A stretch of DNA of 64,000 nt from a virus (Duplodnaviria; Heunggongvirae; Uroviricota; Caudoviricetes), in the IMG/VR virus record IMGVR_UViG_3300027749_005140, positions 1 to 64,000 of that record; one strand, written 5' to 3'. Under the pieces are notes generated by a model. That model was not told the origin of the DNA. It was given only the letters and a program-made list of their open reading frames with translations, and searched no databases. A program made the translations under genes and the position numbers. How positions within the stretch are numbered: position 1 is the first letter of the stretch; every line of letters begins with the position of its first letter. Positions 29,534 through 62,998 of the stretch are shown piece after piece.

Positions 29534-29644
29534 ATGAGAACAAATTCAATACATACAAGCTTTAGTAAGTCGTTCAAGTGGTTTAGCCACAAGTTCGGAT
29601 GTATGAGTATGTCGTTCTCAAAAGAAGATGTTATTGTAGGATAA
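29534..29644 (+). CDS. leader peptide 1 (36 aa) of tRNA array 1
   Basis: MRTNSIHTSFSKSFKWFSHKFGCMSMSFSKEDVIVG; Lys/Phe/Trp/His codons mirror the downstream tRNAs. Confidence 0.45.
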   Translation: MRTNSIHTSFSKSFKWFSHKFGCMSMSFSKEDVIVG

Positions 29645-29674
29645 TGTCATAAAAGAGAATAAAACATAAACGTA

Positions 29675-29707
29675 AACCCGAACTTAAAATTAAGTTCGGG
29701 TTTTTTT
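29675..29707 (+). terminator. rho-independent terminator/attenuator 1
   Basis: aaacccgaactt aaaatt aagttcggg + ttttttt. Confidence 0.7.
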
Positions 29708-30195: not shown

Positions 30196-31233
30196 ATGAT
30201 AAGTTGTAAATTTTGTAAAAAAGTATATATAGGACGTAATAAAAATAAAGATGTTTTAATACATGAGTCCCATTGTATTCTAAATACAGATAGAGTACCA
30301 TATATATGTAATATATGTGATATGGAGTTTGATAAAAGACATTCTTTAATAGGACATAAAAGTCATTGCGGTAATTTAAAAGTTAGGAAAAAACGGATTA
30401 CAAAAGAGAAAGTAATTAAAATACACAAATGTAAATACTGTGATTCAATATTCGAAAATGGTTATAAATTGGGCGGACATGTATCACATTGTGATAGAGA
30501 TCCAGAATATGAAACTAAGAGGAGAAAAATGTGTGATAATATCTCTTTTCTTAATAAAGGAAAGAAATTATCAGATGAAACTAGAAAAAAAATATCAAAT
30601 AGTAGAAGAGAATATTTAAAAAATAATCCAGATAAAGTTCCCTATCTATTAAACCATAGTAGAAATGAATCATATCCTGAGAAATACTTTACTGATGTTT
30701 TTTTAGATAGAAATATTAGTGTAATAAAATCTTACAGAATTGGATTATATGAATTAGATTTTTGTATTTTAGATAAAAAAATAGATATAGAAATCGATGG
30801 TGGTCAACACTATTTAGATAATAAAATTATTGAAAGTGATAAAAGAAGAAATAAATATCTAGAAGATTTAGGTTGGGATATAATTAGAATAAAATGGAGT
30901 GATTATCAATTGTTGGATAAAGATTCTAAAAGAGAATTTATTGATAATATAATCTATTACATAAATGGTCTGGTAAAAACTAAACCAACATTTGAAATAT
31001 TAGATAATAAAAATTATTGTAAATGTGGTATAGAAATATACAAATGTTCTAAAATGTGTTCTAAATGTGATTCATTTAGACAAAGAAAAGTTGAAAGACC
31101 TTCATTAGAGCAAATTTTAAAAGATATAAAAGAAACAAACTATGTCTTGACCGGTAAAAAATATGGTGTTAGTGATAACACTATAAGAAAGTGGATAAGA
31201 CAATATAATGCGGATTTAGCTGAGACGGTTTAG
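30196..31233 (+). CDS. homing-endonuclease-like protein: 3x C2H2 zinc fingers + DUF559/Vsr-like PD-(D/E)xK nuclease + C-terminal HTH
   Basis: CxxC..HxxxH x3; YELDF..IDIEIDGGQHY..D.RR..L..GWDIIRIKW core; stop codon lies inside the D-loop of the following tRNA. Confidence 0.55.
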   Translation: MISCKFCKKVYIGRNKNKDVLIHESHCILNTDRVPYICNICDMEFDKRHSLIGHKSHCGNLKVRKKRITKEKVIKIHKCKYCDSIFENGYKLGGHVSHCDRDPEYETKRRKMCDNISFLNKGKKLSDETRKKISNSRREYLKNNPDKVPYLLNHSRNESYPEKYFTDVFLDRNISVIKSYRIGLYELDFCILDKKIDIEIDGGQHYLDNKIIESDKRRNKYLEDLGWDIIRIKWSDYQLLDKDSKREFIDNIIYYINGLVKTKPTFEILDNKNYCKCGIEIYKCSKMCSKCDSFRQRKVERPSLEQILKDIKETNYVLTGKKYGVSDNTIRKWIRQYNADLAETV

Positions 31234-31281
31234 CGTATGGTTGAAAGCCATAAGAGGTCAATTCGATTTTGACAATCCGCA
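31210..31281 (+). tRNA. tRNA-Phe (anticodon GAA), second gene
   Basis: Acceptor gcggatt/aatccgc, loop ttgaaag, T-arm gtcaa ttcgatt ttgac; 5' 24 nt overlap the endonuclease ORF. Confidence 0.5.
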
Positions 31282-31285
31282 CAAA

Positions 31286-31422
31286 TAGAAAGTAGCTCAA
31301 TTGGTAGAGCACGTAATCATACTTAGTCAGTCTTTCTCTAAGAAACTCTCTTAGTAGCAATGAAATAAGTTACTTCGCTCTGTTAAAGCCGTGGTTGTGG
31401 GTTCGAGTCCCACCTTTCTATC
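31286..31422 (+). tRNA. tRNA-like gene with ~65-nt internal insertion
   Basis: Perfect acceptor tagaaag/ctttcta, canonical D-arm tagctcaattggtagagc and T-arm gtggg ttcgagt cccac, but 87 nt between D- and T-arms. Confidence 0.3.
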
Positions 31423-31464
31423 AGATAAATAAAAACAAAGAATAAAATTTTAATATATAGTAAT

Positions 31465-31542
31465 ATGAAAACAATTATCACAACATCGTCAAGTTCGTCT
31501 AGTCGCTCAAGTAATTTGAGGGAGGTTCTGTTGTGCTCATAA
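31465..31542 (+). CDS. leader peptide 5 (25 aa), Ser/Arg-rich
   Basis: MKTIITTSSSSSSRSSNLREVLLCS; upstream of tRNA-Arg and three tRNA-Ser. Confidence 0.45.
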   Translation: MKTIITTSSSSSSRSSNLREVLLCS

Positions 31543-31564
31543 TTGATATAAAAAATTAGTATGA

Positions 31565-31609
31565 AACCCACAGACTTCAAAGTTTGTGGGTCTTTTGTTT
31601 TTAATTGGT
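31565..31609 (+). terminator. rho-independent terminator/attenuator 5
   Basis: aaacccacagact tcaa agtttgtgggtc + ttttgttttt. Confidence 0.65.
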
Positions 31610-31678
31610 TCCATCGTTTAACGGATAGGATAGGTCGCTACGAACGATCAGGTGGGGGTTCGATTCCCTCTGGAATCA
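31607..31678 (+). tRNA. tRNA-Arg (anticodon ACG)
   Basis: Acceptor ggttcca/tggaatc, anticodon stem ggtcg/cgatc, loop ctacgaa. Confidence 0.5.
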
Positions 31679-31687
31679 CAAATATAT

Positions 31688-31770
31688 GGAGGGTACCGCT
31701 AAGGTAGCAAACTGGGCTTGAACCCCAGGGGTACGGGCAACTGTACGGGTTTCGATTACTCTACCCTCTT
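31688..31770 (+). tRNA. tRNA-Ser (anticodon TGA), class II
   Basis: Acceptor ggagggt/accctct, stem ctggg/cccag, loop cttgaac, long variable arm. Confidence 0.5.
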
Positions 31771-31776
31771 CAGAAT

Positions 31777-31862
31777 AGTGAGTAAGCCTTGATGGTGATA
31801 GGGTCTGCCTGGAAAGCAGTACGTACGTTTAGATGTATAGGGTTCGATTCCCTTGCTCACTA
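31777..31862 (+). tRNA. tRNA-Ser (anticodon GGA), class II
   Basis: Acceptor agtgagt/gctcact, loop ctggaaa, long variable arm, T-loop ttcgatt. Confidence 0.45.
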
Positions 31863-31870
31863 CAAAATAT

Positions 31871-31956
31871 GGAGGATGAATTCACTGGGTAGTGGACGCA
31901 GTTTGCTAAACTGTTGGTGCGTTAAATCGCATTGGGATCGAGACCTACTTCCTCCG
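31871..31956 (+). tRNA. tRNA-Ser (anticodon GCT), class II
   Basis: Acceptor ggaggat/ttcctcc, stem gcagt/actgt, loop ttgctaa, variable hairpin tgcg ttaaat cgca. Confidence 0.4.
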
Positions 31957-31960
31957 CATA

Positions 31961-31999
31961 AAAGAAAAGACTTTGATTTATCAAAGTCTTTTTTATTTT
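31961..31999. terminator. bidirectional terminator
   Basis: aaaagactttgat ttatc aaagtctttttt between the tRNA array (+) and the tail fibre gene (-). Confidence 0.65.
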
Positions 32000-38118: not shown

Positions 38119-38181
38119 AAATATTTCAAAAATATCAAAAGGGAGAAAAACTTTTTAATATATAGAACTATAAACATATAT

Positions 38182-38251
38182 CGCGTTAAAGTGTAAAGGT
38201 TGCATGAGACTTTCATAAGGTCTACGGGGTGGTTCGAATCCACGCTACGCT
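38182..38251 (+). tRNA. tRNA-like, anticodon CAT (poorly folding, possibly degenerate)
   Basis: Anticodon arm agact ttcataa ggtct and T-loop ggttcgaatcc; acceptor and D stems weak. Confidence 0.3.
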
Positions 38252-38298
38252 ACAAAAGAGATAGGTAACGATTTAGATACAAGTCTCAAAAAATATAT

Positions 38299-38371
38299 CG
38301 CGGGATAGAGCAGTAGGCAGCTCGTGTGGCTCATAACCATAAGGTCGGAGGTTCGAGTCCTTCTCCCGCTA
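38299..38371 (+). tRNA. tRNA-Met/Ile2-like (anticodon CAT) with C1:U72 mismatch
   Basis: Acceptor cgcggga/tcccgct, D-arm gagcagtaggcagctc, stem tgtgg/ccata, loop ctcataa, T-arm ggagg ttcgagt ccttc. Confidence 0.55.
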
Positions 38372-38420
38372 CTAAAAGAATAAAAAATTAAAAAAGATTT
38401 GGTGGTTTAAAAACTTATCG

Positions 38421-38496: not shown

Positions 38497-38598
38497 ATGA
38501 CAACAATTACTAACATAACAATAGCTATCGAAGCCATAGGCGGGTATGAAGCGGGGTATATTATACCATCGGTCAGAAGCGTTATGTCTATAAAGTAA
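38497..38598 (+). CDS. leader peptide 3 (33 aa), Ile/Thr/Gly/Glu/Tyr/Ala-rich
   Basis: MTTITNITIAIEAIGGYEAGYIIPSVRSVMSIK; resembles thr-operon leader; codons ATA, GAA, GGC/GGG, TAT, GCN match the downstream tRNAs. Confidence 0.45.
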   Translation: MTTITNITIAIEAIGGYEAGYIIPSVRSVMSIK

Positions 38599-38627
38599 TG
38601 AGTTGAAAAAAACATTATTATATAACA

Positions 38628-38667
38628 AACCCAATCTGACTTAAAAATCAGATTGGGTTTTTTTATT
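38628..38667 (+). terminator. rho-independent terminator/attenuator 3
   Basis: aacccaatctga cttaaaaa tcagattgggtt + tttttt. Confidence 0.7.
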
Positions 38668-61309: not shown

Positions 61310-61390
61310 AATGAAAACAACTAATCTAAATATTAACTTAACGCTGAATGTCTTATGTCTAAGACGTGAACCGGGTTTTGCCTTATTTAG
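61310..61390 (+). CDS. leader peptide 2 (26 aa), Leu/Asn/Arg-rich
   Basis: MKTTNLNINLTLNVLCLRREPGFALI; codons CTA, TTA x3, CTG, CTT, AGA, CGT match the downstream Arg(TCT) and Leu tRNAs. Confidence 0.45.
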
Positions 61391-61439
61391 AGCAAATGAT
61401 AATGTTATTGGATAACATATTATAACTAAATATACAAAC

Positions 61440-61472
61440 AAAACCCGAAATCTAAAAGTTTCGGGTTTTTTT
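61440..61472 (+). terminator. rho-independent terminator/attenuator 2
   Basis: aaacccgaaa tctaaaa gtttcgggtt + ttttttg. Confidence 0.7.
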
Positions 61473-61735: not shown

Positions 61736-62002
61736 ATGAAAGAAATAGATTATATACAGTACACATCATATACATTATTATCAAGTGGTAATGTATTTAA
61801 GGTAAATTCAGTTATGCCTTTACAAAGTTTAGACAAACACTTGAATGAAAGTACAAACTTAATTATGTTTGTAGTTCATAATATAAAGTGTAATGATAAA
61901 GAAGTAATGGTTTATAATAGAGATCTATTTAGATTTACATATGGATCAAAAGAATGTCCTGAAATGATTATGAAAATGAAACATTCACATATATTAGAAT
62001 AA
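61736..62002 (+). CDS. hypothetical protein embedded in tRNA array 3
   Basis: 88-aa ORF between tRNA genes. Confidence 0.3.
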   Translation: MKEIDYIQYTSYTLLSSGNVFKVNSVMPLQSLDKHLNESTNLIMFVVHNIKCNDKEVMVYNRDLFRFTYGSKECPEMIMKMKHSHILE

Positions 62003-62314: not shown

Positions 62315-62404
62315 ATGAAAACAAATACTGTAAATATTAATGTGATTACGATTACGAATTGTGTGAATAACACGACTTCGGGTAAGCGATTATGTATAGT
62401 ATAA
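62315..62404 (+). CDS. leader peptide 4 (29 aa), Asn/Thr/Val/Ile/Cys-rich
   Basis: MKTNTVNINVITITNCVNNTTSGKRLCIV; AAT/AAC, ACN, GTA/GTG, ATT, TGT codons match the downstream Asn, Thr, Val, Ile, Cys tRNAs. Confidence 0.45.
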   Translation: MKTNTVNINVITITNCVNNTTSGKRLCIV

Positions 62405-62430
62405 ACTCATATATTATATACAATTTATAA

Positions 62431-62466
62431 AGACCCGAACTCAAAAAGTTTGGGTCTTTTCTTTTA
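62431..62466 (+). terminator. rho-independent terminator/attenuator 4
   Basis: aagacccgaac tcaaaa agtttgggtctt + ttcttttat. Confidence 0.7.
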
Positions 62467-62647: not shown

Positions 62648-62728
62648 TGGCACATACCAGCCCAACCTGATAAGTTGGAGAACTGTAGCGGTACGTTGAA
62701 AACGTGGGTTCGAATCCCTCTGTGCCAA
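62648..62728 (+). tRNA. tRNA-Ile-like (anticodon GAT) with atypical architecture
   Basis: Acceptor tggcaca/tgtgcca, anticodon arm ccaac ctgataa gttgg (loop identical to bacterial tRNA-Ile); D region too short and 26 nt between anticodon and T arms. Confidence 0.35.
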
Positions 62729-62924: not shown

Positions 62925-62998
62925 ATACCTTGGTCGGTATATCAATTGGTTTAGATTATCACGCTGATACCGTGAAGGTTGCGAGTTCGAGTCTCGCA
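62925..62998 (+). other. degenerate tRNA-like element (T-arm only)
   Basis: gcgag ttcgagt ctcgc T-arm and cggtat/ataccg pairing, but no anticodon arm or acceptor 3' strand. Confidence 0.25.

Follow-up and report, generated by a model that had tools for sequence, protein, structure and literature searches.

A putative leader-peptide attenuator upstream of serine and arginine tRNA genes in a huge phage

We analyzed a stretch of 64,000 nucleotides (nt) of viral DNA (class Caudoviricetes; positions 1 to 64,000 of the IMG/VR record IMGVR_UViG_3300027749_005140), hereinafter the window, in which a short open reading frame (ORF) with a run of serine (Ser) and arginine (Arg) codons is followed by an intrinsic terminator and by one gene for tRNA-Arg and three genes for tRNA-Ser. 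With a probability of roughly 78%, this Ser/Arg module appears to be a ribosome-mediated (leader-peptide) transcription attenuator that would gate the four-gene tRNA cluster of a huge phage. The core of an earlier, sequence-only reading, namely that leader peptide and terminator together form an attenuator of the Arg and Ser tRNA genes, is supported by a collection of 49 modules, by the covariation between leaders and tRNAs and by the RNA helices of 16 homologues; the succession of a Ser/Arg-rich leader, a terminator and four tRNA genes given in that reading was recovered by ORF listing, hairpin search, ARAGORN and Rfam. The parts of the module, with positions in the window, are as follows.

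31450-31459, plus strand: TTAATATATA box, a promoter-like or gene-start signal, 5 nt upstream of the leader ATG
31465-31542, plus strand: leader ORF, 25 codons and TAA, product MKTIITTSSSSSSRSSNLREVLLCS (ORF listing)
31486-31512, plus strand: regulatory codon run, codons 8-16, TCG TCA AGT TCG TCT AGT CGC TCA AGT
31503-31523, plus strand: helix 1:2, predicted anti-antiterminator, 31503-31510 (in the codon run) with 31516-31523 (RNAalifold consensus)
31522-31578, plus strand: helix 2:3, predicted antiterminator, 31522-31531 (GAGGTTCTGT, codons 20-23) with 31570-31578 (RNAduplex)
31566-31603, plus strand: helix 3:4, intrinsic terminator hairpin at 31566-31591 with its T-rich tail (hairpin search)
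31607-31679, plus strand: tRNA-Arg(ACG) (default ARAGORN; Rfam tRNA, 49.1 bits)
31688-31771, plus strand: tRNA-Ser(TGA), type II (ARAGORN -ps90; Rfam tRNA-Sec, 27.8 bits, sub-threshold)
31777-31863, plus strand: tRNA-Ser(GGA), type II (ARAGORN -ps90; Rfam tRNA, 38.3 bits, at 31778-31861)
31871-31957, plus strand: tRNA-Ser(GCT), type II (ARAGORN -ps90; Rfam tRNA-Sec, 39.1 bits, below the gathering score)
31963-31994, no strand assigned: strong bidirectional terminator hairpin at the end of the tRNA array (hairpin search)

At the sequence level, the leader is a short translatable ORF located upstream of the genes that it would regulate, and the intrinsic terminator lies between the two, 23 nt behind the leader stop codon and 15 nt ahead of tRNA-Arg. 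The first seven codons are ATG AAA ACA ATT ATC ACA ACA, and the codon run is followed by AAT TTG AGG GAG GTT CTG TTG TGC TCA and the TAA stop, with a ninth Ser codon (codon 25) and a second Arg codon (AGG, codon 19) outside the run. The nine codons of the run had been listed correctly in the sequence-only reading and miscounted there as nine Ser and one Arg; they comprise eight Ser and one Arg. Given the amino acid frequencies of the window, the chance of nine consecutive Ser/Arg codons is about 2e-9, and the leader ranks first for a Ser/Arg-rich 10-residue stretch among the 393 ATG-initiated ORFs of 15-60 amino acids in the 64-kb window; the cognate regulatory codons are enriched beyond chance. 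Short ORFs are indeed frequent in DNA with a G+C content of 29%, as their number attests, and one such ORF could by coincidence lie in an AT-rich spacer beside an ordinary terminator. This explanation is effectively refuted by the probability of the run, by the ranking, by the conservation of the element across genomes with just 67-73% DNA identity, and by the permutations described below, none of which reaches the observed association between leaders and tRNAs.

The choice of codons within the run also follows the downstream genes. The proposed one-to-one correspondence between the Ser and Arg codons of the leader and the four tRNAs holds because standard wobble rules assign each codon to an encoded tRNA: TCG and TCA are read by Ser(UGA), TCT by Ser(GGA), AGT by Ser(GCU), and CGC by Arg(ACG), which is read as ICG. 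The same correspondence emerges from codon over-use relative to phage genes. TCG accounts for 37 of the 135 Ser codons (27%) in 16 Ser/Arg leaders as opposed to 3% in the window genes, and the long ORFs of the window employ AGA for 80% of Arg residues and CGC for 0%. Leaders that precede Arg(ACG/GCG/TCG) contain CGC or CGT 21 times and AGA or AGG 6 times, whereas those that precede Arg(TCT) contain AGA or AGG 10 times and CGT once (Fisher p = 1.5e-4, for homologues that are non-independent). Codon usage thus indicates that the mapping of leader codons to tRNAs is under selection.

Re-annotation with ARAGORN and Rfam, together with the homologues, identifies the downstream genes as one Arg and three Ser tRNAs. 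Default ARAGORN calls none of the three Ser tRNAs, and the Rfam gathering-threshold scan reports Ser(GGA) alone of the three; with the -ps90 setting, ARAGORN yields complete type-II cloverleaves for all of them, and the homologous Ser tRNAs of related phages are called at default settings. The four tRNAs fall outside the usual scope of attenuators, which is the control of genes for amino acid biosynthesis, transport or aminoacyl-tRNA synthetases; this scope is customary and is not a mechanistic requirement. The bidirectional terminator behind the cluster faces a convergent gene for a tail-fibre-like protein of 1463 amino acids. Altogether, the window holds at least 29 tRNA genes, organized in arrays.

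The alignment of 16 distinct Ser/Arg leaders, which underlies the helix statistics given below, shows that the reading frame is maintained in 16 of 16 cases, all indels being multiples of three. The leaders are 22-25 codons long, preserve the start ATG AAA AC., and terminate with TAA in 14 of 16 cases (TGA in L025 and L072). Ser positions alternate between the unrelated codon boxes AGY and TCN, and the peptides share the MKT start and a SEVRLYS-like C-terminal tail; in the IMG/VR contig L082, the peptide is identical to that of the window. A translation-independent RNA switch that senses tRNA via contacts between codon and anticodon, as a T-box does, would obey a similar regulatory logic (tRNA status) and would likewise contain cognate codons. 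We consider such a switch extremely unlikely given that the runs consist of 5-10 mixed codons within a conserved start-to-stop frame, not of a single specifier, and that indels come in triplets. Furthermore, neither the window at Rfam gathering thresholds nor a permissive scan of the locus yields a T-box or riboswitch match, and the T-box features (Stem I with the specifier loop, the T-box sequence, the Rfam model) have no match in either.

Sister modules in the window and in related phages

When the short ORFs upstream of every tRNA cluster were listed, the ORF-terminator-tRNA layout was found five times in the window. The four sisters of the Ser/Arg module are the following.

29534-29703, plus strand: leader MRTNSIHTSFSKSFKWFSHKF... 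and terminator, before Lys, Trp, Phe, His and Lys tRNAs
38497-38660, plus strand: leader MTTITNITIAIEAIGGYEAGYII... and terminator, before Tyr, three Glu, Ile(TAT), two Gly and Ala tRNAs
61311-61468, plus strand: leader MKTTNLNINLTLNVLCLRR... and terminator, before Arg(TCT) and four Leu tRNAs
62315-62459, plus strand: leader MKTNTVNINVITITNCVNNTT... and terminator, before Asn, Val, Cys and Thr tRNAs

Four of the five window leaders rank first of the 393 short ORFs for a 10-residue stretch cognate to the respective downstream tRNAs. To extend the analysis beyond the window, 49 distinct modules were collected from huge-phage genomes and IMG/VR contigs. The mean cognate fraction in leader codons 4-20 of these modules is 0.449, compared to 0.162 ± 0.022 (maximum 0.245) in 5000 permutations. 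When the set is reduced to 24 mutually dissimilar representatives, none of 20000 permutations attains the value observed. Since some tRNAs escape ARAGORN at default settings, the figures err on the conservative side. Each of 19 amino acids occurs more often in leaders with its tRNA downstream. For example, in relatives of the window phage, the leader MTTTTQYQQQQ precedes three Gln tRNAs; ..PQPQVVVDQDQDPD.. precedes Asp and Pro tRNAs; MKTVKKYYYKK precedes Tyr and Lys tRNAs; MKTKRLHLEQLEQP precedes Pro, Glu, Gln, His, Leu, Leu and Arg tRNAs; and MKTMNLNMNMNTLTVVNNTLCIRR precedes an array of Ile, Asn, Arg, Leu, Val, Thr and Met tRNAs.

This dependence on the downstream genes bears on the possibility that the leader encodes a functional Ser-rich micropeptide, the hairpin being a mere terminator of the small gene or of the upstream tRNAs. 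The conserved length, MKT start and C-terminal tail could be construed in favor of a functional peptide. However, the composition shifts wholesale with the downstream tRNAs (Q-runs, K/Y, D/P/Q, K/W/F/H), the conserved tail coincides with the RNA helix 2:3, and a terminator located 15 nt before tRNA genes that lack a promoter of their own would silence these genes, so that a micropeptide appears very unlikely.

Among deposited phages, the sole DNA-level relatives of the region are the uncultured genomes LR756501-4 and LR745206, each larger than 630 kb. The same modules are present in these genomes and in many IMG/VR contigs, several of them of 300-600 kb. The five deposited genomes are assigned by their authors to phages of the Mahaphage clade with predicted replication in Bacteroidetes (PMC7162821). 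The host of the window phage, too, probably belongs to Bacteroidota. The pattern TTAATATATA-N5-ATGAAAACA produced many chance matches in viral contigs, of which the loci with a terminator and a tRNA were retained. A second pattern, which combines MKT with an AAACCC hairpin and was designed around the phage family, yielded 60 loci in viral contigs and, from these, 27 modules; in 185,579 bacterial and archaeal genomes, there was 1 tRNA module among the matches listed (at least 120 loci) and, with this tailored pattern, those matches gave no indication that bacterial chromosomes carry the system. The single module, L161 (MKTTTTYSRSRSLLKMV before Arg(ACG) and Ser(TGA)), resides on a 4172-bp contig, CAYHBE010000180.1, that was assigned to a Dehalococcoidales bin; the contig probably stems from a phage and was placed in a metagenome-assembled genome by mistake.

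Related phages also encode a short ORF of the MKTLHTYK type that is followed by a terminator; with no tRNA behind it and one His codon, it was not counted as a module. Such ORFs, MKTLHTYKNVIDWM and MRALHTYKITIDLG, are found at 5281-5378 of L001 and 6813-6907 of L002, respectively, in each case with a terminator and without a tRNA. The next genes in L002 encode a basic protein of 67 amino acids, a truncated HisRS-like protein (PF13393) and an RNA ligase (PF09414). Possibly, these ORFs represent a related leader acting on protein-coding genes, with tRNA-repair functions encoded beside the arrays.

Alternative helices and the proposed switch

The leader region of the window folds with an energy of -37 kcal/mol (z = -4.69 compared to 200 dinucleotide shuffles) and can form three alternative helices, for each of which the 16 homologues provide compensatory changes. 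The terminator hairpin (helix 3:4) consists of 11 pairs, 5 of them G-C, followed by CTTTTGTTTT, with an energy of about -16 kcal/mol in the window copy; across the homologues, 90% of the cells are paired, with 4 compensatory pairs (24-64% paired in slid controls). Helix 1:2, which was predicted unaided by RNAalifold, pairs the last part of the codon run with the beginning of segment 2, thus overlapping the regulatory codons, and is paired in 88% of the cells, with 4 compensatory pairs (slid controls, 30-60%). Helix 2:3 recruits the terminator loop and the upper portion of the 5' arm (31570-31578) and at the family level is mutually exclusive with the terminator; in the family register, 82% of the cells are paired, with 7 compensatory pairs, a level of pairing reached by 0 of 500 shuffles (slid controls, 30-58%).

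The same geometry recurs beyond the Ser/Arg modules. For the first 27 modules analyzed, drawn from all types, the terminator 5' arm finds its best partner immediately 3' of the codon run, and across the 49 modules, the antiterminator duplex has a mean z of -2.7 against dinucleotide shuffles, with 71% of the modules below -2. The energy of pairing between a leader and its own terminator is -11.8 kcal/mol compared to -8.1 kcal/mol with non-cognate terminators, a discrimination that is moderate because many of the modules are homologous. In the window copy, the 2:3 duplex amounts to -9.7 kcal/mol by RNAduplex and is the minimum-energy fold of a nascent transcript that ends before the 3' arm of the terminator, with pairing probabilities of 0.96-1.0 for 31570-31575. 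With the ribosomal A-site modelled at codons 8-14, the nascent RNA of the window copy folds into 2:3, and with the ribosome modelled at the stop codon, the terminator alone remains.

These observations are compatible with the following model. Transcription would enter from the TTAATATATA box and/or from the upstream tRNA genes, and a ribosome would start on the 25-codon leader. With ample Ser-tRNA(UGA), Ser-tRNA(GGA), Ser-tRNA(GCU) and Arg-tRNA(ICG), the ribosome would reach the TAA codon and either cover segment 2 or be released, allowing helix 1:2 to re-form; with segment 2 masked in one of these ways, helix 3:4 would fold and RNA polymerase would stop 15 nt before tRNA-Arg. If any of the four tRNAs is scarce, the ribosome would stall at codons 8-16 and melt helix 1:2, whereupon segment 2 (codons 20-23) could pair with the terminator 5' arm, block the terminator and permit read-through into Arg(ACG), Ser(TGA), Ser(GGA) and Ser(GCT). 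The new tRNAs would relieve the stall and close the loop, amounting to demand-driven homeostasis of the encoded tRNA species. As the products are the sensed molecules, the circuit would control the supply of specific tRNAs by direct negative feedback. The candidate triggers include loss of host tRNAs after shut-off, codon-usage mismatch and defence nucleases that cleave tRNAs. More generally, it appears moderately likely, with the Ser/Arg module as one channel, that huge phages of Bacteroidota gate each tRNA array with a composite leader that samples exactly the downstream isoacceptors, these being the first attenuators on tRNA genes and forming a self-correcting, on-demand circuit.

Several considerations weigh against attenuation as formulated here. 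No Shine-Dalgarno sequence was found for the Ser/Arg leader; its mRNA may be leaderless, or the leader may be part of a tRNA transcript, in which case translation could face competition from processing. The 2:3 duplex of the window copy is not significant on its own, 22% of dinucleotide shuffles doing as well or better (z = -0.73), and several of its cells are mismatched in the family register because the window copy pairs with a 1-nt bulge; as judged from these predictions, the antiterminator is present at the family level and weak in the window copy. Because helices 1:2 and 2:3 are located in coding sequence and the homologues are related, common ancestry and constraints on codons may account for some of the apparent covariation. 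The tRNA-Ser(TGA) gene is the weakest of the four tRNA predictions, and all matches to the module come from uncultured metagenomic genomes, with no cultured relative among them. Finally, attenuation senses charged tRNA, and additional tRNA helps only if the tRNA itself, rather than the amino acid or the synthetase, is limiting.

Some of these points could be accommodated by a genuine regulatory unit with another read-out, such as Rho access, RNase processing, transcript stability or a reversed polarity whereby stalling favors termination. Such a unit would be expected to possess the same conserved ORF, codon run and terminator, is in accord with the individually weak antiterminator of the window copy, and could operate if the module is embedded in a tRNA precursor that is cut by RNase P and RNase Z. 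It is nevertheless unlikely, given the three mutually exclusive helices in the canonical order with compensatory changes, the location of segment 2 just 3' of the codon run throughout the modules first examined, and the stall and stop-codon geometry that agrees with the classical polarity.

Transcription signals and neighbors of the arrays

The sequence-only reading assigned no promoter box to the Ser/Arg module. This stands insofar as TAnnTTTG, the Bacteroidota -7 promoter consensus, is missing from it, as it is upstream of the Ser/Arg modules of L082, L044, L096 and L085; it does not stand with regard to the TTAATATATA box, which the module retains 5 nt before the ATG and which is kept upstream of homologous leaders. 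TAnnTTTG precedes three of the window sisters, those before the Lys/Trp/Phe/His, Tyr/Glu/Ile/Gly/Ala and Arg/Leu tRNAs, as well as many other modules, at a distance from the leader ATG of approximately 45-75 nt in the window copies and approximately 18 nt in several relatives. The TTAATATATA box occurs 13 times in the window, in 9 cases with an ATG at +4 to +6; the ATG-linked copies include four ordinary genes (4384 and 49645 and, on the minus strand, 57248 and 26596) and four leader ORFs, and the copy at 38155 directly precedes a tRNA-like gene without an ORF. Other plus-strand sites include 29518, 30166, 31450, 61296 and 62300. The box is a candidate promoter because ordinary genes at the same spacing and one ORF-less tRNA-like gene follow it; it may be a phage-specific promoter that gives rise to leaderless or near-leaderless mRNAs, or else a start-site signal. 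Between the terminator and the first tRNA of the Ser/Arg module, there is no space for a promoter because the gap is 15 nt. The module lies directly 3' of a tRNA-like gene, and internal attenuation within a long tRNA transcript, as originally suggested, is possible.

The TTAATATATA box that starts at 38155 belongs to a cluster of two genes with the CAT anticodon, a tRNA-like gene (38179-38253) and tRNA-Met (38299-38372), that has neither a leader ORF nor a terminator. This is the sole tRNA cluster of the window that is apparently exempt from leader control, and the Tyr/Glu/Ile/Gly/Ala leader begins right behind it.

The tRNA-like gene directly upstream of the Ser/Arg module (31283-31422) combines normal acceptor, D and T arms with an insertion of approximately 50-65 nt after the D arm, and the same gene directly precedes the Ser/Arg leaders of L082, L096 and L085. 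When introns are allowed, ARAGORN interprets it as Met(CAT) with an intron in the window and as Asn(GTT) with a 56-nt intron in L096. Ahead of its anticodon stem, the phages share the conserved motif GAGTTACTTCG, and none of the Rfam intron families matches the gene. The insertion could be an intron or an extra arm, or the gene could be a pseudogene. Further upstream in the array (30196-31233, plus strand), an ORF of 345 codons encodes a protein with REase_MTES_1575/DUF559 (restriction-endonuclease-like), NUMOD3 and HTH domains that resembles a homing endonuclease; at its 3' end, the ORF overlaps tRNA-Phe(GAA) (31210-31282), the second copy of this tRNA gene. In the third tRNA array, an ORF for a protein of 88 amino acids without a Pfam match (61736-62002, plus strand) is located between Leu(AAG) and Leu(CAA). 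In addition, Rfam detects two more tRNA-like genes, at 62648-62728 and 62938-62997 (34.6 and 37 bits, respectively), that are missed by ARAGORN. Relatives carry Ile(GAT) in this place, a tRNA that would fit the ATT codons of the Asn/Val/Cys/Thr leader.

Comparison with known attenuation systems

Phage tRNA genes have been proposed to compensate for differences in codon usage, to replace the decaying host tRNA pool and to evade anticodon nucleases. To our knowledge, current ideas all treat phage tRNAs as constitutively made cargo. If the model outlined here is correct, the supply of phage tRNAs is regulated per isoacceptor and on demand, classical attenuation extends to genes for non-coding RNA with direct feedback on the sensed molecule, and the leader codons provide a sequence-readable signal of the tRNAs that the phage expects to run short. 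The modules are compact (approximately 140 nt) and modular, properties that suit them for use as synthetic sensors of how much of a specific tRNA is available, and the hypothesis is directly testable by coupled transcription-translation with defined tRNA pools. No description of leader-peptide control of tRNA genes was found in a literature search that did not extend to subscription-only publications, and neither "leader" nor "attenuat" occurs in the text of the huge-phage paper (PMC7162821).

T-boxes resemble the phage modules in that terminator read-through depends, through an antiterminator, on the status of a specific tRNA. They differ in binding uncharged tRNA without a ribosome, and are characterized by Stem I, a single specifier codon and the conserved T-box sequence. 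The closest parallels are found among leader-peptide attenuators, that is, the his leader (hisL; His_leader, RF00514) and the trp, leu, thr and pheA leaders of Proteobacteria. These leaders are similar to the phage modules in possessing a short ORF with a run of regulatory codons, the 1:2, 2:3 and 3:4 helices formed by segments 1-4, a terminator just before the regulated genes and a stop codon close behind segment 2. The permissive locus scan gives a sub-threshold His_leader match with this layout (25.6 bits, E = 0.078, threshold 49), and the Rfam scan at gathering thresholds returns tRNA matches alone, with no leader family reaching the threshold. The differences are that the classical targets are biosynthesis enzymes whereas here they are tRNAs, such that the output would feed back on the sensed molecule, and that the phage element is phage-encoded, lacks a Shine-Dalgarno sequence and scores below the gathering score of every Rfam leader.

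Mixing of codons for several amino acids in one leader is familiar from ilvGMEDA and ilvBN (Ile, Val and Leu codons) and has counterparts here in the Ser and Arg mix and in the K/W/F/H, Y/E/I/G/A and N/V/C/T mixes of the sisters. Because such a leader combines several codons, a shortage of any one amino acid would relieve termination, as in the ilv type. In the ilv leaders, however, the mix follows a shared biosynthetic pathway, whereas in the phage it follows the list of downstream tRNAs, down to isoacceptor-specific codons. Leader-peptide attenuation of a component of the translation apparatus, as proposed for the phage modules, is represented in Escherichia coli by the pheST leader (pheM), with the difference that pheM controls a synthetase operon on a bacterial chromosome and the phage leaders precede tRNA genes. 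As far as can be judged from sequence comparison, the novelty of the system would thus lie in the application of a known form of attenuation to a new class of genes, those for tRNAs, carried by huge phages.

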